A stretch of DNA of 41,901 bases, taken from a virus (lineage: Duplodnaviria > Heunggongvirae > Uroviricota > Caudoviricetes). The stretch is taken from the IMG/VR virus record IMGVR_UViG_2541047898_000007. One strand, 5' to 3'. The notes below the pieces were generated by a model, which saw only the letters and a list, made by a program, of their open reading frames with translations, was not told the origin of the DNA and did no database searches. The position numbers and the translations under genes were made by a program. Shown here one piece after another: positions 1 through 39,889 of this stretch (position 1 is the first letter of the stretch; each line of letters begins with the position of its first letter).

Positions 1-1194
1 ATGATCACCGACACAAAGCTCAGGAAGGCGCTCGGCAAGAAAAGAGATGATATCGAGATTATTTCTGATTCGCACGGGCTCAACGCCAGAATCAGCCAGG
101 CCGGAAAAATATCATTTTTCTATCGGTATCGCTGGGCCGGTAAAGCGGTAAAACTCAATGTTGGTGATTATCCTGCAATGAGTATCACCCAGGCAAGAGA
201 GCGTCGCCAACAATTCAGAAACTGGTTAACTGAGGGACTGGATCCGCGAGAGCAGGTGAAGCTGGATAAGCAGACCCGACAGGAAGCGATGTCCGTTGCC
301 GAAGCGTTCAATTACTGGATTGAAAGGCACTGTATCGCTAACGGGCTAGTTAAAGTCGATTACTATCGCCAGGTGTTTGAGAAACATATCGCCGAACCGA
401 TGAAGAATGTCAAAGTCGATAACACAGCGAAAATGCACTGGATCAACGTCTTCGATTCTATAGAAAGCAGGGTGATGGCTCATTACATGCTTTCGCTGTG
501 CAAACGGGCGTTTAGGTTCTGCGTTAACAGAAGTGTGATCGCCTCAAACCCACTCGAGGGATTACTGCCATCTGATGTCGGGCAAAAGCCTAAAAAGAGA
601 ACTCGCAGGATGGACGATGACGATCTGCGCAAAATCTATCAGTGGTTGAAAAGCCATATGTCGATAGAGTCCGTTTTCCTGGTGAAATTTATTATGCTTA
701 CCGGATGCCGTACGGCTGAGATTCGACTTAGTGAGAGATCATGGTTTCGATTGGATGATAATGAGTGGGTCGTGCCTGCGGGCAGTTATAAAACTCGGGT
801 ACATATTAGAAGGGGACTCTCAGACGCCGCCGTTAACCTGGTCAGAAATCACCTCAAGAAAATAAACACCAATCACCTGGTGACTTCACAACGTAAAATT
901 GATGGCGGGATCAAAGATTCGCCCGTTCATTCACCTGTGGCATCCAATTACGCCCGTTCTATTTGGAATGGAACAGGTATGGCAGAGTGGTCGCTTCATG
1001 ATATGAGGCGGACGATAGCCACAAATCTCTCTGAGTTAGGTTGCCCGCCGCACGTAATTGAAAAGCTGCTCGGGCATCAGATGGTGGGGGTTATGGCGCA
1101 TTACAACCTTCATGACTATATCGATGATCAGAAACACTGGCTCCGCGTTTGGCAGAGCCATCTTGAAGAGATCATCGGAGAGCCCTTCAGTTAA
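1..1194 (+). CDS. int: Phage tyrosine integrase (site-specific recombinase); starts at base 1 so the 5' end may coincide with the window edge
   Basis: 397 aa ORF; C-terminal catalytic region with HDMRRT...LLGH...HY signature typical of tyrosine recombinases; N-terminal arm-binding-like region; position at prophage edge. Confidence 0.85.
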
Positions 1195-1433
1195 TTTATC
1201 TTCTTTTTATCCTCCCACTCTTTGATTGACTCAGAGCGCCAGCGGTTAGGGTTGCCGGGCCAGTCAGGGGGTGGGAACGGGCATACGAAGCCCCGAGGCA
1301 TTGTGTCTGCACTTTGCCATGACCAAAGGGTTTTGCGTGAAATTTTGTAGCGACTGGTCAGGTCTGACGTTACCAAAATATCATCCATAGCTCTCTCCAG
1401 TTGCCCGTTCGGGCCATTCAAAATCTTTTTCAA
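1191..1433 (-). CDS. AlpA-like excisionase / small DNA-binding regulator
   Basis: 80 aa; motif ISRKTLWSW followed by Pro-rich PFPPP...RW resembles AlpA/Xis-type helix-turn-helix proteins; 4 bp overlap with int stop, convergent. Confidence 0.55.
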
Positions 1434-1672
1434 CCAACCTGCCCGGGCAGGGAGCGGAGACGGCGCATGCCGGTCATCGCTGTGGCCACGTAGCTCGCCT
1501 TTCGGTTCACCACCTCCACCCAGACTTTCACGCCTTCAACCTTCACCGTATAAGTCTCTTTCATCTTGCTTCGCCCATAGTCGCCATATGTTTGCAAGTG
1601 AGCTGCCAGCGCGATGTCGCATGCTTGGCGAGCTAAAGGTGATTGCTTACTTCCTCGATTGATCAGTCGCAT
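1430..1672 (-). CDS. Hypothetical small protein
   Basis: 80 aa ORF translationally coupled (4 bp overlap) to the xis-like gene; no recognisable motif. Confidence 0.35.
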   Translation of the reverse strand: MRLINRGSKQSPLARQACDIALAAHLQTYGDYGRSKMKETYTVKVEGVKVWVEVVNRKASYVATAMTGMRRLRSLPGQVG

Positions 1673-1710
1673 ATAATCTCCTTGAGGGAGGGTTACCCCT
1701 CCCGGTCTCG

Positions 1711-2829
1711 TCAGGCCACGTATTCCGGTTTCATATCCGCCAGGGTGATGCTGAATTGATCGTGCAGTTCATCGCCTAAGTGACGCTTTGAAGATGCAAG
1801 CATGCGCTCGGCTTCAGCGAACCGTTCGGCTGCATGCGGCTCGTCGGGCTGGGGCAGGGATTTAATAGCCTCCTCAACCTTGTTGCGTGCATCCACTAGG
1901 TAATAACGCTTTACGGCTTTGTTTTTCAGCTCGGTGAATAGTGCGGATCCCAGCGTAGCTTTCGCCGTTTCAATGTCGGCACGCAGCGATTTGGCGCTAT
2001 CCACGTCCTGAGCAGATTCGATGCGTTCGCGGAAATCATCGGCAAGAGAGTCGACATTTACCGACGATTCCTGTGCGCTTTGCGTGGTTGTGACGGTGTC
2101 ACCTGAGATATCAGCCAGGCTAACGCGTTGCGGCGTTGGGTTGATCTCTTTTTCTGTGCGCTGTTCAATCTCATCAGGGGTGTACACACCAAGAACAACT
2201 GCAGGGCAATATAGGCGCGCCCAGTATTTGAGTGCCAGATAAGCGATCTGCTGTTTCGGGTTTGATACCCAAAGTGGAGAATTACGTGTGATTACGCTGG
2301 AGAGGAAAACAGGCTCTCCCCAGGTGATATCACTTTCACCGCGAATAACGGCACCTACCCGTACCGACAGTCCTTGTTCATCAGCACTTTCCCAACCGCG
2401 TACCATTTCTTTCTTGTCGTACGTCCCGCCACCTTTCGCAGGCTTTTTAACGGTTATCTCGCGGCTGCTGGCACATTTCGACCAGTCGCCCTCGTACTCA
2501 TAGTGAAAGCGGCCAACGATGGCGTTTGAGCTGGAGATCACCGCATTAACCAGTTGCGCTTCGTATCCCAGGACACCGTTAACCAGGTGCGTCTTTTGCG
2601 CCACGGCGTAAGGGTTCATACCCCACTGCATCGCCTGCATGATGATGGCCATGCAGTCTGCCGGATTGCCGCGGAGGTGCTCAGGCACCGTTACGGCTGC
2701 CTGTGCCATCAACCCGGCGACAGACTGAAGCTGGGTTAAAGCCTGCACGTTGAAAATGGCATTGCTGGCTGAGATCGTGTTTGGAGTCTGCTGTTCAGCG
2801 GTTACGATATTCGTGTTTTCCATCATCAT
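1711..2829 (-). CDS. Single-strand annealing protein, Bet/Red-beta (RecT superfamily), with extended acidic C-terminal region
   Basis: 372 aa; segment CMAIIMQAMQWGMNPY...NGVLGYEAQ resembles the lambda Bet core (FIALLIVANQYGLNPW); lies immediately downstream of a large exonuclease gene as in recET/red operons. Confidence 0.6.
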   Translation of the reverse strand: MMMENTNIVTAEQQTPNTISASNAIFNVQALTQLQSVAGLMAQAAVTVPEHLRGNPADCMAIIMQAMQWGMNPYAVAQKTHLVNGVLGYEAQLVNAVISSSNAIVGRFHYEYEGDWSKCASSREITVKKPAKGGGTYDKKEMVRGWESADEQGLSVRVGAVIRGESDITWGEPVFLSSVITRNSPLWVSNPKQQIAYLALKYWARLYCPAVVLGVYTPDEIEQRTEKEINPTPQRVSLADISGDTVTTTQSAQESSVNVDSLADDFRERIESAQDVDSAKSLRADIETAKATLGSALFTELKNKAVKRYYLVDARNKVEEAIKSLPQPDEPHAAERFAEAERMLASSKRHLGDELHDQFSITLADMKPEYVA

Positions 2830-2834
2830 TCCCC

Positions 2835-5800
2835 TTATGCCTGAGTACGCAGCGCTTCAAGGCGGCGCAGGTCGAAGTCGTTCAGTTCGTCGGTGTAGTC
2901 AGCAGTGATTGGCGCTGGCCATTCACCTGTGTCGAATCCGGTTGCGATATTGCGCATCGCTTTGCGGTACTCGAGCATACCCAGCTCCAGTAGTTCAGCG
3001 GATGCCTCGATGATGGCGATCCAGTGGTAGTTCTCGTCTTTGTTGACGAAAATCCAGAAGAACTGATCCAGCGCTGCGGTTTCGCAGTACATAGCCGCGC
3101 TCAGGTGATAATCACGTTCAATAATTTCCCGGTGTAGCCTGGCGCGCAGGCTTTCCTGCTTAACATTCCACATGCTGATGGTTTTCAGGTCTGCACCTAT
3201 ACGCACGCCATCCAGGTCGATCTCAAGGTCAGGGCGCACACGAACTTCCAAGCCCGTCTCCTCGTCAAAACCAAAGTAGCTCACCTCAACGGCTCGGCTA
3301 GGGTGGGTCAGCAGCATGCCGGCGGTCGGGTGTGCCAGAAGCGCTTTTTGAATATTCAGCGCGGTGCTCAGCTGCTGGCGGGTGACCAGCACTTTTCCTT
3401 CCGGGTTATCGCGCCAGGCATCCAGCAGTTCGTCGGCAAATACGGCATCTGGTTTGACTGCCTTCACGGCCTGGATCATGTCTGCTTTGGTACCGGACAC
3501 TTTCAGTGGTGCCGGTTTCTGTGCTTCCTGAGCCACAAGGTCAGGGTTGATGATTGCCAACTGCTCCAGCAGCGCGTCACGGCTGCCGCTGGTTTTAACC
3601 GGCGGCGGCAGGGTGGCGTTGTACTCTTTAATGCATGCCTTCATTGCCGTCGCCGTCTGCTTCTGGTCACCATCAATACGCTGGAAGTCAGCTGGCAGCG
3701 CCATATAGTTCTGTGCCGTTTCTTCCAGGTTAGCGCCAAGCGGAACCTGCGGCGGCAGGGTGGCGTTGTACTCTTCCAGTAACACCTTGATGTCGTCGGC
3801 AGACAGCAGCGCCGGCAGGCTGGCATTGTGCTCATCGATAAAGGCGCGCAGGGTCGCGGCCGTTGTGAATGCGCCTTCAGGGATCACCGGTTCAACGCTG
3901 AATTCTGCGTCCAGTAGTTCAGGCTGCAACGCCAGCGCATGCACCAAGTTGCCCATGTCCAGCACCGCTGAGCGCTCTTTGACGATGGTTTTCTCTACGT
4001 GGCGCGCATTGAAGTACATCAGCGAAACGCGCGCATCTTTCACCTGGGTTGAGCTGATGCCGTTGGCGGCGTGGTAAACCTCGTTTGGCAGCCCTTCATA
4101 GCGGCCTGGCTCGAAATAAGCGGGATAAACAACAGCTGGTTCGTCAGATTGCGCTTCTGGCTCGGTTTGTGCTGCAACTGGTTCGGTTTGGCTTACAGAA
4201 TCGCTATTTTTGGCGACAGAATCCGTATTCTGGTCTACATCGTCCTTCTGGCTGGTATCTGACTCTTCACCAGACTCCAGACTGCTTTCGCCTGGCTGTA
4301 CTTCATCACCAGCTTGTTTTTCATCACTGACAGTTTCTTGAACCTGCACATTGCTGGTGGTCTCCGTAGCCTTTTTCGTGCCATGAGTTGCTGAGTTCTG
4401 CAGCAAAGCCGTAACGTCGAATATTCCGTTGCCGACATTTTTAACCAGTTCTTGTTCGACTTTCTGCGGTTGTGCTGCCGCTTCCTCTGCGCGGCGGCGT
4501 GCTCCTTCTTCACGCACGCGTTGCAGGTTCTCTTCGTGAGTGCAGAAGGATTTGCGCGGAGACTCCTTACCTTCAGGTTGGGGAATTTCCTGTGCTGCGG
4601 GTTCAGCCTCATGCAACGGCAATAACTCGACCGCGGAATTGAACGCGGCTGTCATGGTCTGGTTAACAAATTCCAGGTGAGCGACAGGAGTTAAATGAAT
4701 ATTTTCCGGTGCGATACGTACCAGGTTAAAAATAGCCGTGCGGTTAACACCCAGAACGCCTGGCTGATTGCGCAGGATGTTGCTCCATGATTTCCATGGT
4801 TCTTCTTTTTTGGTCACGATTTCTTTAGCGCGACGAAGAATGCTGCCCGGGATCTCGAAGTGGTTGAAGTCCATAGGCAGAAGGGCACACGCAATCTCTA
4901 AATCGAGAGTGTCCAGTGTGTGGTGTGCGTCAGGTCCACGGTCAGTGACGTAACCGCCGTCGGCATTAGTGCCGGAATCAGTACGCTGCACACTACTGAT
5001 GCGATTACCGGCGGCCCATTCGCGAACGAGGATACCGCGGTCGATGTGATCTGTAGCGAACCACAATTTCAAAAACTGGATTAAGGTTGCGAGTTCAGGG
5101 ATTTTTCCATCGACAGGGAAGACTTTCTTAACGGCATTCACGACTTTATGAATATCGTGCTCAATGGCTTTTTTGAATGCTTCCACATTCTCAGCTGCCA
5201 GCAGCAGGTTCTGGACGTACGCGTCATCGGTGTCCATCTCAAGGCGGACAATCTCATTTTTCTGCCCTGCGTCGATGTGATAGAGATATTCACCATCACC
5301 GATGAACTGAGCCAGTACGCGCTGGCGGAATGGCAGGGTGGCAACAACGATCAGGTTCGGTTGCTGTGTCTGCTGGGATTGCTCTTCGGTATCGACTTCA
5401 CCATCAACGACGCCACCTTCTGCCCGGCCGTTCTCGTCGGTCTGGATACCGTCCTCAACAGTGAGATCTTGACCCGTTGTAACGTCAGCAGCGTTGCTGG
5501 TTTCAGTTTTGAGCAACTGCAACTTACCACTGCGCCAGTCTTCTACCAGTTGATTGCGGTCACCGGCATCGGTGTTCACCCAGTCAGACATGAATGCAGC
5601 GATCAATCTTGGCTCGTGCTCTTCGTCTGGTGTGAAAATGTCCTTAACCGCCCGAATCATTTTCCACTCAGCATTCAGGCTGAGTTTGGCGGTCGCGGGC
5701 ACATCGTTCCTTGCCACAAGCAGGCTATGGAGATATGTATTGCCTTCATCCAGTGACATTTCGCTGGCAGCCAACTGCTGCTCTTTAGTGACGTGGGTTT

Positions 5801-6224
5801 GGTATTTATCGTTCATCAGATGGACGGCAAAGCGGACCGCTGGAGTACGGTTTTCAACCGGGACAATTTCGGACGCAGTCGCATCTTCAACGATTACGGT
5901 CGGAGTAGGTGTGTAGGGGGCGTCAACGGAACCAGTAGACACACCAGCGGCTTTTGGCAGCCAGGTGCGCCCATCGTCCTGAAGCTCGTAGCGATCACAC
6001 CAGGTAAAATCAACTTCACCTTCTTTCGGCAGGCCGTCGACAACTGGGAAATCAGTGCGAATCGGTTTGGCGTAGTCCTTACCCCGACCTGTTTCGATAC
6101 CTGCATCTTCCAGCGCAACATCCAGCATCAGATTGGCGCGAGCCTCGGTTTTAGCAGTGAACCAGACCACTGCATCTTGCTTTCCGGATTTCTGAGTGGC
6201 TTTAACCACATTAAAGAATTCCAT
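2835..6224 (-). CDS. Large RecE-like exonuclease (exonuclease VIII-like) with long acidic low-complexity N-terminal and central region
   Basis: 1129 aa ORF directly upstream of, and co-oriented with, the Bet/RecT-like gene; call rests on synteny and size, catalytic motif not verified by eye. Confidence 0.5.
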   Translation of the reverse strand: MEFFNVVKATQKSGKQDAVVWFTAKTEARANLMLDVALEDAGIETGRGKDYAKPIRTDFPVVDGLPKEGEVDFTWCDRYELQDDGRTWLPKAAGVSTGSVDAPYTPTPTVIVEDATASEIVPVENRTPAVRFAVHLMNDKYQTHVTKEQQLAASEMSLDEGNTYLHSLLVARNDVPATAKLSLNAEWKMIRAVKDIFTPDEEHEPRLIAAFMSDWVNTDAGDRNQLVEDWRSGKLQLLKTETSNAADVTTGQDLTVEDGIQTDENGRAEGGVVDGEVDTEEQSQQTQQPNLIVVATLPFRQRVLAQFIGDGEYLYHIDAGQKNEIVRLEMDTDDAYVQNLLLAAENVEAFKKAIEHDIHKVVNAVKKVFPVDGKIPELATLIQFLKLWFATDHIDRGILVREWAAGNRISSVQRTDSGTNADGGYVTDRGPDAHHTLDTLDLEIACALLPMDFNHFEIPGSILRRAKEIVTKKEEPWKSWSNILRNQPGVLGVNRTAIFNLVRIAPENIHLTPVAHLEFVNQTMTAAFNSAVELLPLHEAEPAAQEIPQPEGKESPRKSFCTHEENLQRVREEGARRRAEEAAAQPQKVEQELVKNVGNGIFDVTALLQNSATHGTKKATETTSNVQVQETVSDEKQAGDEVQPGESSLESGEESDTSQKDDVDQNTDSVAKNSDSVSQTEPVAAQTEPEAQSDEPAVVYPAYFEPGRYEGLPNEVYHAANGISSTQVKDARVSLMYFNARHVEKTIVKERSAVLDMGNLVHALALQPELLDAEFSVEPVIPEGAFTTAATLRAFIDEHNASLPALLSADDIKVLLEEYNATLPPQVPLGANLEETAQNYMALPADFQRIDGDQKQTATAMKACIKEYNATLPPPVKTSGSRDALLEQLAIINPDLVAQEAQKPAPLKVSGTKADMIQAVKAVKPDAVFADELLDAWRDNPEGKVLVTRQQLSTALNIQKALLAHPTAGMLLTHPSRAVEVSYFGFDEETGLEVRVRPDLEIDLDGVRIGADLKTISMWNVKQESLRARLHREIIERDYHLSAAMYCETAALDQFFWIFVNKDENYHWIAIIEASAELLELGMLEYRKAMRNIATGFDTGEWPAPITADYTDELNDFDLRRLEALRTQA
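3603..3840. repeat. Intragenic direct repeats in the RecE-like gene (two perfect 26 bp copies at 3603-3628 and 3750-3775, a third degenerate copy near 3810-3840)
   Basis: cggcggcagggtggcgttgtactctt occurs twice 147 bp apart; corresponds to repeated peptide unit containing EYNATLPP. Confidence 0.7.
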
Positions 6225-7237: not shown

Positions 7238-7352
7238 AATATATTTAGATAAAGCGATAATTTTATGATTTATAAGATTATTTATTTGTTCGAGAAATGT
7301 GTGAGGAAATGACATTAGCGAAGTGATTGGGGGAAATTTAATCTGGTGAGGC

Positions 7353-7378
7353 AATAAAAAACCCGGCAAGCCGGGTTT
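7353..7378 (-). terminator. Rho-independent terminator immediately after the cI stop
   Basis: Plus strand aaaaaacccggcaagccgggttt; on the minus strand a GC hairpin (cccggc / gccggg) followed by a T-run. Confidence 0.6.
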
Positions 7379-8069
7379 ATGCGAAGCGCTTGTAGTCTAT
7401 TGATTGTCTCAGTAGCACTTTAGCCATTACGTAGAACTGATCTTCGTCTTCTGACTCAATATACCATTTCTCGTAGATAGGGTTGTCTGAGATAACAGCA
7501 AGCCGATCTCTTTGCATCTGAAGCCTTTTGACGTGCAGAGTTTTTCCGAACACAAATACGTAAACACCATCACCATCAAAATGAGTCACGCCAGTATCAA
7601 CAAAAATTTGATCTCCTGGTGAGATGGTTCCATCCATGCTGTCGCCGTTCACGGTAATAACTTTTACATTAGCTGCGGGGCGATTTCCGAAAAGTGCGCG
7701 AGCCTGTTCAGTTGTGTATTCGATTGCTCTTATGGTTTCGATAAAATCGCTGGTAACTAGCGAGCCAGGACCGGCGCTGGCCTTAACGTCAAGCACATCC
7801 ACGCGGTATATCTCATTCAAAACTGGTTTAATTTGGTATGGCGTGTTTACTTCGCGAATGCCAGATTCAAACATTTCACCTTGTCCTGTTGAAAGCCATT
7901 CAGGACGCACACCAAGAACAGATGCGATCTCTACTGTTTTTCGTGAGCCTTTCGCACCTTTAAGCAATTTATTTACGCTGGACTGAGCCATACCAACATC
8001 TTTCGCCAGCTTAGCCTGCGTATATCCAGCGACGTCCATTGCGTGCCCTAAGCGTTCTGAAAATCCCAT
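7377..8069 (-). CDS. cI: CI-like prophage repressor (N-terminal HTH, C-terminal S24 LexA-like autopeptidase domain)
   Basis: 230 aa; N-terminal QAKLAKDVGMAQSSVNKL HTH-like segment; C-terminal VNGDSM ... KRL segment with Ser/Lys dyad arrangement typical of S24 peptidases; divergent from a cro-like gene across an operator-rich region. Confidence 0.85.
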   Translation of the reverse strand: MGFSERLGHAMDVAGYTQAKLAKDVGMAQSSVNKLLKGAKGSRKTVEIASVLGVRPEWLSTGQGEMFESGIREVNTPYQIKPVLNEIYRVDVLDVKASAGPGSLVTSDFIETIRAIEYTTEQARALFGNRPAANVKVITVNGDSMDGTISPGDQIFVDTGVTHFDGDGVYVFVFGKTLHVKRLQMQRDRLAVISDNPIYEKWYIESEDEDQFYVMAKVLLRQSIDYKRFA

Positions 8070-8101
8070 AAAAGCCTCTGTTTAAGTCCCCTTTAAATGG
8101 T

Positions 8102-8170
8102 ATCGCTAAGGCGATTGCTTGGCAAAAAATCGCATAGGCGATTGACAATCGCTAAAGTGATATCCATAAT
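8102..8170 (+). promoter_or_regulatory. OR-like tripartite operator with rightward promoter (PR-like)
   Basis: Three 14 bp dyads ATCGCTAAGGCGAT (8102-8115), ATCGCATAGGCGAT (8129-8142), ATCGCTAAAGTGAT (8148-8161); TTGACA at 8142-8147, 17 nt spacer, CATAAT at 8165-8170, then cro-like ATG at 8198. Confidence 0.55.
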
Positions 8171-8197
8171 CGTTTTAAACTAATAGCTGAGGTGATT

Positions 8198-8431
8198 ATG
8201 AAGAACCCCGCAGTAGAAAAAGCGATTGCCCTTGTCGGTAGTCAGAAAGAGTTAGCTAAACGCTGTGGAAAGGCCCAATCAACGATTTGTGATTGGTTGA
8301 ATGGGAAGAAGCGTATTTCTCCTGTTCATGTCCCAGACCTTGTTAATGCCGTTAACGGAGAAATTCAGGCATACGAATTTCGACCTGATCTTCCATCCAT
8401 TTTTCCACATCCAAATAACCATGCCATTTAG
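8198..8431 (+). CDS. Cro-like / YdaS-type small HTH regulator
   Basis: 77 aa from the ATG at 8198 (track ORF begins at an upstream GTG 8192); motif GSQKELAKRCGKAQSTICDW is a helix-turn-helix; divergent to cI. Confidence 0.55.
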   Translation: MKNPAVEKAIALVGSQKELAKRCGKAQSTICDWLNGKKRISPVHVPDLVNAVNGEIQAYEFRPDLPSIFPHPNNHAI

Positions 8432-8472
8432 TCAAACCAGTGGCGTAACTCACTTTATGAGGATTATCACCC

Positions 8473-8793
8473 ATGGAGAACGCAATCGCACGAAAGTTAG
8501 ACCCGCCAATTATCAATCCGGTTGAGATCGAAAGTGTCCTGCTCAACCGGCTTGCATCAGTGGGTCAGAAGTCTTACGCCGAGTATATGGGCATAAGCGA
8601 GTCGACAGCCAGCAGGCGCAAAGCAGAGGGGCATTTTAGCACCATGGCGAAAGAGCTGGCCTTCTTGGGTATTCAGGCTGCGCCACCGGAAGCGGTGCTG
8701 GTGTCACGTGAATATCTGGCCTCAGTCGAAACGCTCGCTGATATCGGACTGAAAGCCGAAAGGGCAAGGCCAGGGCCGCTGGGGTGGGATTGA
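8473..8793 (+). CDS. CII-like transcriptional activator
   Basis: 106 aa; IESVLLNRLASVGQKSYAEYMGISESTASRRK resembles lambda CII (IESALLNKIAMLGTEKTAEAVGVDKSQISRWK); position after cro. Confidence 0.6.
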   Translation: MENAIARKLDPPIINPVEIESVLLNRLASVGQKSYAEYMGISESTASRRKAEGHFSTMAKELAFLGIQAAPPEAVLVSREYLASVETLADIGLKAERARPGPLGWD

Positions 8794-8885
8794 AGATGGC
8801 AGAAACCAGAAAAGGCGAAAGCCGCAGTGCACGAACACAAGCGGCTTTCTACGCGAATTAACTGAACAAATTCACAGGAGTAATT

Positions 8886-9812
8886 ATGGCAAATACTGCT
8901 GAAGTAATCAATTTCCCTATCAAAACCGAGCAAACAGGAGGTCCTATGGCCGACCTGTCCAACGGGTACACCCGGATCGCCAACGAGATTCAGAAGCTCA
9001 AACCACGCCTGCGCATGTCGGGGCGTGAATGGCAATGCCTGGAGGCGGTTATCTGGTTGACCTACGGATGGAACAAAAAACAGGACCGGGTTACTAATAC
9101 CGTCATCGCAGGGCTAACAGGCCTGGCTGATACGCATGTATCAGACGCGATCAGTTCTCTGGCTGAACGTGGAATTATTTTCAGTCACAAGCAGGGCGTG
9201 ATGAAAATTGTCGGTATAAATACTGACCTGAATGCCTGGATTTTGGACAAACCGAAAACGGGAAAACTCTTCCCGAAATCGGGAAAATCCTTCCCGAAAA
9301 CGGGAAAAACCTTCCCGGAAACAGTAGCCACCCAAGACTATAACAATAACAATATTAAAAGATCATCGTCAGAGAATTCTGGCGAATCCTCAGACGACCG
9401 GCTGAACAAGTTTTTATCAGCTCACCCTGAAGCGGTTATTTACACCCCCAACTTCACCAAGTGGGGAACAGTTGCTGACCAGCAATGCGCCGAGTGGATC
9501 CTCACTCTGCTCGAAAAAGTTAAACCCTTCCCGAAAAAACCCGTCATGGCCGCCTGGGCGAATGACGTGCGCCTGATGCGCGAGCTGGATGGCCGGAGCC
9601 ATCGTGAAATCTGCGAGCTTTTCCAGTGGGCCAGCAAGGACGCCTTCTGGCACGCCAATATCCTCTCGCCTGCAAAGCTCCGTGCTAAGTGGGACACGCT
9701 CTCACTTCAGCGCGACGCTGCCGCCCGTCGCACCACAACCGGCGGCGTCCCGGGCATCGACTTCAACAACACAGACTGGATCAACGAGGTGTTCGATGGA
9801 AAGACTATCTGA
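8886..9812 (+). CDS. Replication initiator, lambda O-like, with origin iterons inside the gene
   Basis: 308 aa; follows cII; contains the iteron array and an AT-rich stretch within the coding sequence as in lambda O; repeated peptide KLFPKSGKSFPKTGKTFPE encoded by the iterons. Confidence 0.7.
   Translation: MANTAEVINFPIKTEQTGGPMADLSNGYTRIANEIQKLKPRLRMSGREWQCLEAVIWLTYGWNKKQDRVTNTVIAGLTGLADTHVSDAISSLAERGIIFSHKQGVMKIVGINTDLNAWILDKPKTGKLFPKSGKSFPKTGKTFPETVATQDYNNNNIKRSSSENSGESSDDRLNKFLSAHPEAVIYTPNFTKWGTVADQQCAEWILTLLEKVKPFPKKPVMAAWANDVRLMRELDGRSHREICELFQWASKDAFWHANILSPAKLRAKWDTLSLQRDAAARRTTTGGVPGIDFNNTDWINEVFDGKTI
9251..9324. repeat. Origin of replication iterons (about 3.5 copies of a ~20 bp dyad unit TCCCGAAAACGGGAAAA) followed by an AT-rich segment (about 9335-9370)
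   Basis: accgaaaacgggaaaa / tcccgaaatcgggaaaa / tcccgaaaacgggaaaaa / cttcccggaaac read directly; similar in form to lambda ori iterons (TCCCTCAAAACGAGGGA). Confidence 0.65.
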
Positions 9813-10485
9813 GCAGCTGGCGAACTGTGACCGCGAGAGTTTCCGCCGCATCGCCCATGGCATGCCTGAGGCTCCGGCAGAGTGCCCGGGTGTCGAGCAG
9901 ACGGCGGAGATTTTCAACGGTCTGTTCAGTGCTCTGCGTGCCGCGTTCCCGGCGGCAATGGCCGTTTTCCGTGAGCAGAGCGAGTTCAACGAGCTGCGCC
10001 GCCAGTGGCTGATGGCGTTTCAGGAGAACGGGATCACCACCATGGCCCAGGTCGCCGCCGGCATGCGTGTCGCTCGCCGCCAGGAGAAGCCGTTCCTGCC
10101 GTCTCCGGGCCAGTTCGTCGCCTGGTGCAAGGAGGAGCGCTGCCTGCTGGGGATCACCGTTGACGACGTGATGACTGAGTACTGGAAGTGGCGCCGCCTG
10201 GTGTTCCGTTTCCCGACCAGTGAGCAATACCCCTGGCCAGCGCCGGTGCTTTACCACATCTGCACCGAGCTGCGCCGCCAGAGTACCGATCGGCAGATGA
10301 CCGAAAACGAGATGCGCCAGGCCGCCGGAAAGGTCCTGGCCGGATGGGAAGAGCGCGTCGCCGCGGGTAAGCCCGTACCGCCAATCCGTCGCGCCATCGC
10401 CGCGCCGGCTAAAGCCAGCGGCCCCACACCAGCAGAGATGCTGATGGCCGAATACAAAAAACGCAAAGCAGCTGGTCTGATTTAA
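9796..10485 (+). CDS. Replication protein P-like (helicase loader)
   Basis: Starts at the in-frame ATG 9796 within track ORF 9589-10485 (upstream part overlaps O in another frame); segment ENGITTMAQVAAGMRVARRQEKPFLPSPGQFVAWCKEE matches my recollection of lambda P; follows O. Confidence 0.6.
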   Translation: MERLSEQLANCDRESFRRIAHGMPEAPAECPGVEQTAEIFNGLFSALRAAFPAAMAVFREQSEFNELRRQWLMAFQENGITTMAQVAAGMRVARRQEKPFLPSPGQFVAWCKEERCLLGITVDDVMTEYWKWRRLVFRFPTSEQYPWPAPVLYHICTELRRQSTDRQMTENEMRQAAGKVLAGWEERVAAGKPVPPIRRAIAAPAKASGPTPAEMLMAEYKKRKAAGLI

Positions 10486-10496
10486 CAGGAGAACAC

Positions 10497-11222
10497 ATGG
10501 AAACCGTCATTCAAGCACTGGAAAAAATGGGCCGGGCGACATACCGCGAAGTGGCAGCCCGTCTGGATATCGAACCTGTGGAAGCACTGAACATGCTGCG
10601 CGAACAGCGCGAGCAGGGCATGTGTGATTTCTCCGACGGCGGCTGGTTTGTTGGCAGGCTGAAGGACCAGAAGAACACCCCTGCACCAGCTCCGGCTGTC
10701 GCCGCTAAAGCGCCATTGCGCGGCGAAGAGCCGAAGGAGATCAGCGTAGAGGGGATCACCCGCCTGCTGGCGCAACGCGGTGCCATGGATACTGTGGGCA
10801 TCGCCAGGGAATTTGGGCGTAACGCTCGCGGCATCACCGCATGGATGGGTTCACTGGCCCGCCAGGGCGTCGTGGTGAAGAACGGGCAGGGCAGGGGAGT
10901 AACCTGGTCATTGCCGGCACCCGCAGCACCAGCAGCAGGACCAGCACCAGCAGCAGAGGCAGTCAGCGTAGAGCATGAACTGACGAAGGCCGGCCCGGAG
11001 AAAGATATCGCGCAGATTGTCAGCGAAATCCCCGCGTTCACTGAAGGGTGCGCCGCCAGCATGTCCATTCCGGCGGCCCGGATGATCTCCCGCGAAATTC
11101 GTCGCACCAAAAACAGGCTGGCGCAGCTGACGAAACTGCAGGGCGCCGTGCGCACTTTTGCCCGTCATAAAAATCTCGTGCAACAGCTGGTGAACCAGGA
11201 GGCAACCAGTGAGCGAGATTAA
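10497..11222 (+). CDS. Hypothetical phage protein with Ala/Pro-rich linkers
   Basis: 241 aa; good RBS (caggag) upstream; PAPAPAVAA and PAPAAPAAGPAPAA low-complexity linkers; typical position after P in lambdoid prophages. Confidence 0.5.
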   Translation: METVIQALEKMGRATYREVAARLDIEPVEALNMLREQREQGMCDFSDGGWFVGRLKDQKNTPAPAPAVAAKAPLRGEEPKEISVEGITRLLAQRGAMDTVGIAREFGRNARGITAWMGSLARQGVVVKNGQGRGVTWSLPAPAAPAAGPAPAAEAVSVEHELTKAGPEKDIAQIVSEIPAFTEGCAASMSIPAARMISREIRRTKNRLAQLTKLQGAVRTFARHKNLVQQLVNQEATSERD

Positions 11223-38978: not shown

Positions 38979-39889
38979 TGGCAATAAATAACTTTAAACC
39001 TTTCGCGACAGCAGCAAATGCTAACGTGACGGCCCAGGCTGACTGGGAAACACTTCCGGCTCTACTCTCTGGTTTCATGGCAGGAAAGGCATCCAGTGCG
39101 CAGGTAAACAAAGCTATTCGACAGGCCAGCTTTATTGCGGCAGCACTGGCACAGTACACGGCCAACAAAAGTGGGCTGGACGTTCTTGATGATGGTGACC
39201 TGAACGGGTTTATCTCCAAAATGGGGACCGCTTTTGGGAAAGATTTCCAGGCGCTTGACGCCACGCTGACGGCATTGGCTGGGCTCGCAACTGGTGCAAA
39301 TAAACTCCCGTATTTCACTGGAACTGATACAGCAGCTCAGACTGATTTAACTTCTGTTGGCCGTGACATTATTGGGAAAAATACTATTGCTGACATTCTC
39401 ACATACCTTGGTTTGGGAGAAGGCTCTGCATTACCTGTTGGTGTGCCTGTTCCATGGCCTTCAGCCACACCGCCAACAGGCTGGCTGAAATGCAACGGTG
39501 CGGCATTTTCTGCTGAAGAATACCCGGAACTGGCAAAGGCTTATCCAACAAATAAATTACCTGATTTACGCGGTGAGTTTATTCGTGGCTGGGATGACGG
39601 GCGCGGTATTGATGCAGGACGTGTTTTATTGAGTATTCAGGCCGGAATGCTGGAAAAGCACCGTCATCCTGTTGTCGCCAACGATGGGTATGACTCAAAA
39701 GAGGAATGGGAACTGGCGACAATCTTCAGAAGAGCATATACGCAAGGCAGGGGGCTTGATGCTGCCGCTGCCGGAGGGAGTCTGATCCCATCACCGACAC
39801 TTCATTCACGAGGGAGTATCGGTAATACTGGCGGGAGTGAAACCCGTCCACGAAATATTGCATTTAACTATATCGTGAGGGCTGCATAA
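38978..39889 (+). CDS. Tail fibre protein; constant N-terminal part up to about 39408 and invertible variable C-terminal part
   Basis: Start at ATG 38978 (TAATG overlap with upstream stop) within track ORF 38960-39889; C-terminal tail-collar-like motif PWPSATPPTGWLKCNGAAFSAEEYPELAKAYP; a hix-like crossover site lies inside the gene. Confidence 0.7.
   Translation: MAINNFKPFATAANANVTAQADWETLPALLSGFMAGKASSAQVNKAIRQASFIAAALAQYTANKSGLDVLDDGDLNGFISKMGTAFGKDFQALDATLTALAGLATGANKLPYFTGTDTAAQTDLTSVGRDIIGKNTIADILTYLGLGEGSALPVGVPVPWPSATPPTGWLKCNGAAFSAEEYPELAKAYPTNKLPDLRGEFIRGWDDGRGIDAGRVLLSIQAGMLEKHRHPVVANDGYDSKEEWELATIFRRAYTQGRGLDAAAAGGSLIPSPTLHSRGSIGNTGGSETRPRNIAFNYIVRAA
39396..39421. other. Left invertase crossover site (hix/gix-like, 26 bp) inside the tail fibre gene
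   Basis: TTCTCACATACC TT GGTTTGGGAGAA; 15 bp (39408-39422) is a perfect inverted copy of 41267-41281. Confidence 0.6.

Follow-up and report, generated by a model that had tools for sequence, protein, structure and literature searches.

In 1979, Grosschedl and Hobom and Moore et al. (both as mentioned in PMC5043065) sequenced and compared origins of lambdoid phages. In phage lambda, four dyad iterons are annotated (GenBank) inside gene O, downstream of the part that encodes the N-terminal domain of the initiator, and are followed by an A-rich block, an EcoRI palindrome, the C-terminal coding part and then gene P. An origin of this class is expected to have at least four direct repeats of an initiator site, each of about 15-19 bp and with internal dyad symmetry, and immediately to their right an A+T-rich segment of about 40 bp. 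In phi80 (RefSeq NC_021190), four sites annotated as 'protein_bind gp15' lie in the linker-coding part of gene 15. Here we describe an element at positions 9249-9397 of a 41,901-nucleotide stretch of Caudoviricetes DNA (IMG/VR record IMGVR_UViG_2541047898_000007; "the window" is this whole stretch), which presents the same parts in the same order inside an O-like gene. The element is very probably an origin of vegetative (theta-mode) replication that belongs to a lambdoid prophage and has the phi80 specificity type; it is located in the part of the initiator gene that encodes an interdomain linker.

The left part of the element is formed by four head-to-tail dyad units (TTCCCGRAAWCGGGAA) with an exact spacing of 21 bp, at positions 9249-9326 and wholly within the initiator open reading frame (ORF). 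The dyad consists of the arms TTCCCG and CGGGAA around a 4-bp centre, with 18 of the 24 arm positions being self-complementary, and each unit is followed by A-rich bases and then by three variable spacer bases. Iteron 1 (AAACCGAAAACGGGAA, 9249..9264) has a degenerate left arm and the right arm CGGGAA, and is kept in 23/23 relatives; iteron 2 (TTCCCGAAATCGGGAA, 9270..9285) has full dyad arms and is conserved among relatives; iteron 3 (TTCCCGAAAACGGGAA, 9291..9306) has perfect 6-bp arms and matches the consensus exactly; and iteron 4 (TTCCCGGAAACAGTA, 9312..9326) is a variant unit next to the AT-rich block. The four units align column for column with the four gp15 sites of phi80, iteron 4 corresponding to TTCCCGAAAACGGTA, with 8 base differences within the sites and differing spacer bases.

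The array stands out from its surroundings by several measures. Tandem Repeats Finder reports a repeat of period 21 at 9252-9322 (3.4 copies, 88% matches) with a score of 107, against a best score of 46 in 300 dinucleotide-preserving shuffles of the gene. The 10-nt core CCG[AG]AA[AT]CGG occurs three times in the window, always in the array and 21 bp apart; a 14-mer allowed up to three mismatches gives 12 matches against 4.07 expected, a number reached in none of 100 shuffles; and the 17-mer TCCCGAAAACGGGAAAA of the preliminary description of this DNA, made by a model from the letters alone, is found exactly at 9292-9308. In addition, the 10.5-bp periodicity of AA dinucleotides at 9236-9340 is the strongest in the whole window. 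This periodicity is a sequence signature, and as a proxy it suggests that the iteron DNA is intrinsically bent by phased A-tracts.

Two further sequences resembling the iterons were set aside. The first, a half-unit (CCTTCCCGAAAAAACCCG) at 9525-9542, lies in the part of the gene coding for the C-terminal domain and encodes the peptide PFPKKP; it has no right arm and neither it nor the peptide is conserved in phi80, and it was treated as a chance occurrence. The second is a lone core (TCGCGAAAACGGGA, one mismatch) on the minus strand at 28428-28441, inside the ORF 28044-28649 of the structural-gene region, where there are no neighbouring copies and which was not counted in the origin; by our own estimate, about 0.01 such matches are expected by chance.

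The right part of the element starts three bases past the last iteron with an AT-rich block of 36 bp (9330..9365, 25% G+C), which aligns with the A+T region of lambda and with the corresponding block of phi80, and in which the synonymous sites are frozen. It has the lowest G+C content in the O-P genes and belongs to the lowest 0.44% of all 36-nt windows, the top strand holding 20 A and 7 T, and it is presumed to be the site of initial strand opening. The block is followed by a 32-bp imperfect palindrome (TCGTCAGAGAATTC-TGGC-GAATCCTCAGACGA, 9366..9397) that contains an EcoRI site, corresponds to the palindrome on the right edge of the ori region in lambda, and is nearly identical in lambda (GTCAGAGAATTCTGGCGAATCCTCTGAC) and phi80. 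Because one published account ends ori-lambda before the EcoRI palindrome (bases 39034-39160; PMC3349717), we treat the palindrome as a conserved sequence next to the origin whose role is uncertain. The preliminary description had proposed an origin at 9251-9370 with about 3.5 tandem copies of a dyad unit of about 20 bp and an AT-rich tract within about 20 bp of them, all inside the initiator coding sequence. The tandem dyad repeat, the AT-rich tract at the expected distance and the location in ORF 8886-9812 are all borne out, but the copy number has to be corrected to four units at 21 bp, and the right limit to 9397, since the conserved block continues through the palindrome.

The gene that contains the element (8886..9812, + strand) encodes a protein of 308 residues, homologous to the product of phi80 gene 15, which matches the Pfam family Phage_rep_O (PF04492, 1.7e-22) across residues 21-118 and PHROG 277, 'replication initiation O-like' (5e-109). 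Identity to phi80 gp15 is 82% in the N-terminal 150 residues and 68% overall, and identity to lambda O is 38% over the full length. The next gene (9796..10485, + strand) encodes a P-like helicase loader of 229 residues, a homologue of the phi80 gene 14 product, assigned to Phage_lambda_P (PF06992, 3.6e-50) and to PHROG 109, and 46% identical to lambda P and 61% to phi80 gp14. These matches agree with the O and P assignments of the preliminary description, and neither reading frame is interrupted or shortened when compared with phi80. The two genes overlap by 17 nt (9796-9812), compared with 4 nt in lambda and in phi80.

An AlphaFold model of the initiator, built on 28 sequences, has an N-terminal domain of moderate confidence with a helix-helix-helix-hairpin topology, a confident C-terminal domain at residues 169-282, and an unstructured segment between them at residues 114-167 (predicted local distance difference test, pLDDT, <50). 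The origin DNA corresponds to codons 122-170, the iterons starting at codon 122, past the end of the Pfam domain at residue 118. Since the unstructured residues lie between the two folded domains, the origin DNA encodes the linker between them. The array itself encodes the peptide PKTGKLF-PKSGKSF-PKTGKTF-PET, in keeping with the KxFPKxGK repeat that had been noticed in the linker. A Foldseek search of the model against the PDB gave no significant match (best E = 0.055), the MarR-, ArsR- and DnaD-like hits only hinting at a winged helix, and a sequence search of the PDB found no solved relative of the initiator, with winged-helix regulators at chance level only (E >= 0.036). To our knowledge, no structure exists for the O family.

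The closest described system is that of phi80, which was missed by a megablast search against phages (only partial matches were returned) and was found by a search in protein mode. It shares with the element the iteron sequence class, the four units with 21-bp spacing, the AT-rich block, the palindrome, the linker-coding position and the P-like partner, and it also has an antisense small-RNA locus (M3) in the cII-O gap. phi80 was reportedly included in the 1979 comparison by Grosschedl and Hobom. It is nevertheless a different phage, as seen from the overall identities of the two replication proteins, and the prophage surrounding the element here is Rac-like and located beside the gene kch. 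The lambda iterons, in contrast, are of another sequence class (TCCCTCAAAACGAGGGA), with TCCC/GGGA arms separated by 9 bp compared with 6 bp here, and with an irregular spacing of 20, 24 and 23 bp instead of exactly 21 bp. Lambda also has an A+T region of 38-40 bp inside gene O, and phased A-tracts are common to both systems (PMC5043065; PMC3349717). The N-terminal domain of lambda-type O proteins is only about 30% identical (tblastn), so that cross-recognition is not expected. Thus, the alignment with the gp15 sites and the high N-terminal identity to gp15, together with the different class of the lambda iterons, assign the element to the phi80 type. The lambda ori architecture proposed in the preliminary description therefore holds as regards the order of the parts and the place of the annotated lambda iterons, but the nearest relative is phi80 rather than lambda.

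Other origins are further removed. In the Shiga-toxin phages 933W and P27 the origin contains six iterons of the lambda type and the O proteins are lambda-like, whereas four phi80-type units are found here, and the initiators of the CUS-3 and Stx2a-phage type belong to the same PF04492 family and have a similar C-terminal domain, but differ in N-terminal subtype and in repeats. Plasmid origins (F RepE, R6K pi, pSC101 RepA and P1 RepA) likewise have initiator sites beside an AT-rich unwinding element (PMC5043065). Unlike these, the present initiator is not from a plasmid Rep family, PF04492 being the only family above the Pfam cut-off, the origin lies inside the initiator coding sequence, and helicase loading would proceed via a dedicated P protein.

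In order to follow the element among relatives, one genome per species was scanned, which gave 26 loci matching the whole initiator or its N-terminal half, at 63-89% amino acid identity. All 26 keep the four units in register, so the repeats, whose absence from close homologues would have counted against an origin, are a constant feature of the initiator gene. The loci come from Silvania, Kluyvera, Pseudescherichia, Citrobacter, Atlantibacter, Phytobacter, Yokenella, Enterobacter, Izhakiella, Klebsiella, Pantoea, Buttiauxella, Morganella, Xenorhabdus and Pectobacterium, and the phi80-type origin is thus widespread in prophages of many genera of Enterobacterales. In one of them (L028, Kluyvera genomosp. 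3 YDC799, ~3375-3395), the initiator gene is frameshifted by the loss of one base within iteron 2 and its open frame ends after 146 residues; what remains of the array is still in place, as are the AT-rich block and the palindrome.

One period of the array spans exactly seven codons, and the repeat is conserved at the peptide level, as would also be the case if FPKxGKx heptads had been selected for some property of the linker and the likeness to iterons were a by-product. The synonymous sites allow the two cases to be told apart. In 22 non-redundant sequences, considering only codons with a conserved amino acid, the third-position entropy is 0.17 bits in codons 122-170, whereas the N-terminal domain has 1.10 bits and the C-terminal domain 1.28 bits (Mann-Whitney P = 5e-10); restricting the comparison to four-fold degenerate codons gives 0.19, 1.35 and 1.50 bits, respectively. 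DNA-level purifying selection thus acts on the whole origin block. When the same 27-residue peptide was recoded with random synonymous codons at the window's own usage, the recodings held 0.42 cores, whereas the actual sequence has 4 (P = 2.5e-4), and they matched the dyad at 10.8 +/- 1.65 arm positions, none of 20000 reaching the observed 18. Moreover, lambda keeps the DNA architecture with a quite different linker peptide, and the homologous phi80 sites are annotated as protein-binding.

The Morganella locus (L025, M. morganii H1r, ~1400-1500) also bears on this question. There, all four units have changed together, from TTCCCG...CGGGAA to TTACCG...CGGTAA, so that in the peptide Gly is replaced by Val three times and Phe by Leu, whereas the dyad persists at the DNA level in another form. 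The frozen synonymous sites, the recoding tests, the Morganella shift and the conserved array together indicate that the peptide repeat is a passenger of the DNA repeat, and we consider it extremely improbable that selection on the peptide alone accounts for the array. In this respect, the element illustrates neatly how a DNA function that overlaps a coding sequence fixes its synonymous sites. Elsewhere in the Morganella protein, the N-terminal domain has just three unique changes, E15D, V55I and D87N, and is otherwise invariant; D87N falls in the predicted third helix. The iteron change and D87N, in what is predicted to be the recognition helix, may form a protein-DNA specificity pair; this is a single observation, but if true it would single out a residue with which O-family proteins contact bases.

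A further group of loci (L027 and L031-L036) matches the initiator only from residues ~140-175 onward. Their C-terminal domain is similar and, with the exception of L035, they also carry the palindrome and the AT-rich block; the N-terminal domain is of another PF04492 subtype (the CUS-3 / Stx2a-phage type, with CUS-3 and Stx2a-converting phages among its phage relatives) and the repeats are different, namely CCCGCGCAT-type units at ~12-bp spacing, encoding PAHxPAH and located ~260 nt upstream of the start of the match. The converse is seen in Klebsiella phage 5 LV-2017, which shares the N-terminal domain and the iterons (81% nucleotide identity) and then continues with other C-terminal and P alleles. 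The gene 3' of the initiator in that phage, for which the annotation suggested a DnaC-type loader, is a member of the P family according to Pfam. As judged from these sequences, this is the classical modular pattern, in which the iterons go together with the N-terminal domain, and the C-terminal domain with the P partner, and the element provides another example of the pairing of iterons with the initiator N-terminal domain.

The palindrome shows signs of conserved base pairing, with 86% of cells paired across 29 distinct sequences and two compensatory pairs (G-C to C-G in 19 vs 9 sequences, and A-T to G-C in 15 vs 10). These changes define two haplotypes that are linked to C-terminal alleles. 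Two loci with differing C-terminal sequences, L029 (Pectobacterium odoriferum) and L035 (Xenorhabdus stockiae), lack the palindrome. The Pectobacterium locus retains four phi80-type iterons and most of the AT-rich block. The pattern in these two loci suggests that the point of exchange is immediately to the right of the AT-rich block, and that some origins of this type do without the palindrome. The AT-rich block and the palindrome are nearly unchanged over at least three initiator classes (lambda-type, phi80-type and CUS-3-type), which differ in N-terminal domain and iterons, and their synonymous sites are frozen among the phi80-type sequences. The right half (9330-9397) may be more than an unwinding element, although we regard this as rather unlikely: it could be where the helicase is loaded, or a site bound by the C-terminal domain or by the P complex, or alternatively it could be a fixed junction for the exchange of iteron/N-domain cassettes between phages.

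The presence of an origin of this descent does not by itself mean that this copy is in use. The window is 100% identical to a chromosomal prophage of Escherichia coli HH107, adjoining kch, and the whole 3.2-kb stretch from the immunity region to P (window 7300-10500) is present in only 1 of 5426 complete E. coli genomes. The element could be a relic, a phi80-type origin now inactive through the changed iteron 4 or a defect elsewhere in the prophage, and the frameshifted Kluyvera initiator shows that an array can still be present in a broken gene. The right arm of iteron 4 is GGTA in 21/23 relatives (as ...ACGGTA) and in the fourth site of phi80, whereas here it reads AGTA, by one further change from G to A that is unique among fourth units. 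However, this change is synonymous, and the A is tolerated at the same position in 11/92 units elsewhere; the O and P frames are, as described above, intact and full length; near-identical proteins are found on 18 contigs (P0001); and the window encodes a seemingly complete phage, with genes for integrase, recombination, immunity, replication, antitermination and lysis followed by long structural-region ORFs. In view of these data, an inactive relic seems improbable, and an origin that serves the prophage remains by far the better account.

The mode of action of the element can be outlined on the model of lambda, for which the mechanism of initiation has been described (PMC5043065; PMC7466680; PMC3349717). 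A pR-like promoter (TTGACA-17 nt-CATAAT, 8142..8170, + strand), which matches the consensus at 11 of 12 positions, is placed between a cI-like repressor gene (7377-8069, - strand) and a cro-like gene (8192-8431), upstream of cro, cII (the cII-like gene is at 8473-8793), O and P. It is presumed to be the source of the O/P mRNA and of the transcription that activates the origin: by analogy with ori-lambda, transcription from it would produce the O-like and P-like proteins and would cross the origin. Dimers of the putative winged-helix domain at the N-terminus of the initiator would then bind the four dyad iterons, which would be separated by two helical turns and lie on the same face of the bent DNA, and binding would wrap the array into an O-some. 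On supercoiled DNA, the resulting stress would be relieved by opening of the adjacent A-rich 36-bp block, where the C-terminal domain of the initiator would recruit the P-like protein and the host DnaB helicase. Host chaperones would finally free the helicase, and replication would start. Bending, helicase loading and activity of this prophage copy are points that we infer from the analogy.

In lambda, iterons that have been cloned, together with transcription of oop, are inhibitory to phages with the same type of replication (PMC3349717), which raises the question of whether the array mainly titrates the initiator, silences incoming phages of the same type or forms terminators on the antisense strand. 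Two local features could speak for such a role. One is a terminator-like hairpin on the minus strand (9275..9259), formed from adjacent units, which we rejected as a terminator: it is a by-product of two neighbouring units, and such hits are no more common than in shuffled sequences (2 vs 1.9 expected). The other is a putative small antisense RNA, of the type of oop in lambda and M3 in phi80, just upstream, in the cII-O gap (8815..8911, - strand). It has a promoter-like site (TTGATT-17 nt-TG-CATAAT, 8911..8883) and is predicted to fold (-28.5 kcal/mol, z = -4.2) into two hairpins, the second of which is a G+C-rich stem followed by a T-rich tail. The annotated M3 RNA of phi80, which is homologous to oop of lambda, occupies the same place and likewise has the shape of two hairpins, with little sequence identity; in a search of the whole window at the Rfam gathering thresholds no family was matched, and so none at the origin or in the cII-O gap. 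Roles in control or exclusion are, however, secondary to and dependent on the same recognition of iterons by the initiator, and the AT-rich block, the P-like partner gene and the homology to phi80 and lambda all indicate initiation. Such a role would add to initiation and not replace it, and there is very little chance that it is the main one.

Several points weigh against an active phi80-type origin, or against parts of it. We infer the binding of the initiator, the unwinding and the replication of this copy from homology, and the case for pR-driven transcription comes from the consensus match. The model of the N-terminal domain is of moderate confidence (pLDDT 50-64), and its tentative assignment as a winged helix relies on topology and on Foldseek hits that are not significant (E >= 0.055). 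The sequence ACAGTA of iteron 4, in place of ACGGTA, is seen in the fourth unit of no relative. As for the palindrome, its changes amount to two haplotypes tied to C-terminal alleles, so that the compensation probably reflects one or two events, and its place in the origin is uncertain, given that it is missing from two relatives with different C-terminal sequences.

In our view, the element is a previously unannotated case of a long-known kind of origin, real but ordinary, and no current view of lambdoid replication is changed by it. In the RefSeq record of HH107 the two genes carry only the names 'replication protein' and 'replication protein P', and an origin is not annotated. The main value of the analysis is therefore one of annotation, with the origin placed to the base and assigned to the phi80 specificity type.

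Outside the replication region, the left part of the window (1-6224; L055) starts with a tyrosine integrase gene, followed by RecT and by an unusually long RecE-family exonuclease (1129 residues), so that a Rac-like recombination module (RecE/RecT) is joined here to a phi80-type replication module. Directly 3' of the P-like gene, a DUF1627 gene contains a 9-nt tandem repeat (GCACCAGCA, 4.3 copies, 10917-10956), which encodes an alanine/proline-rich peptide.

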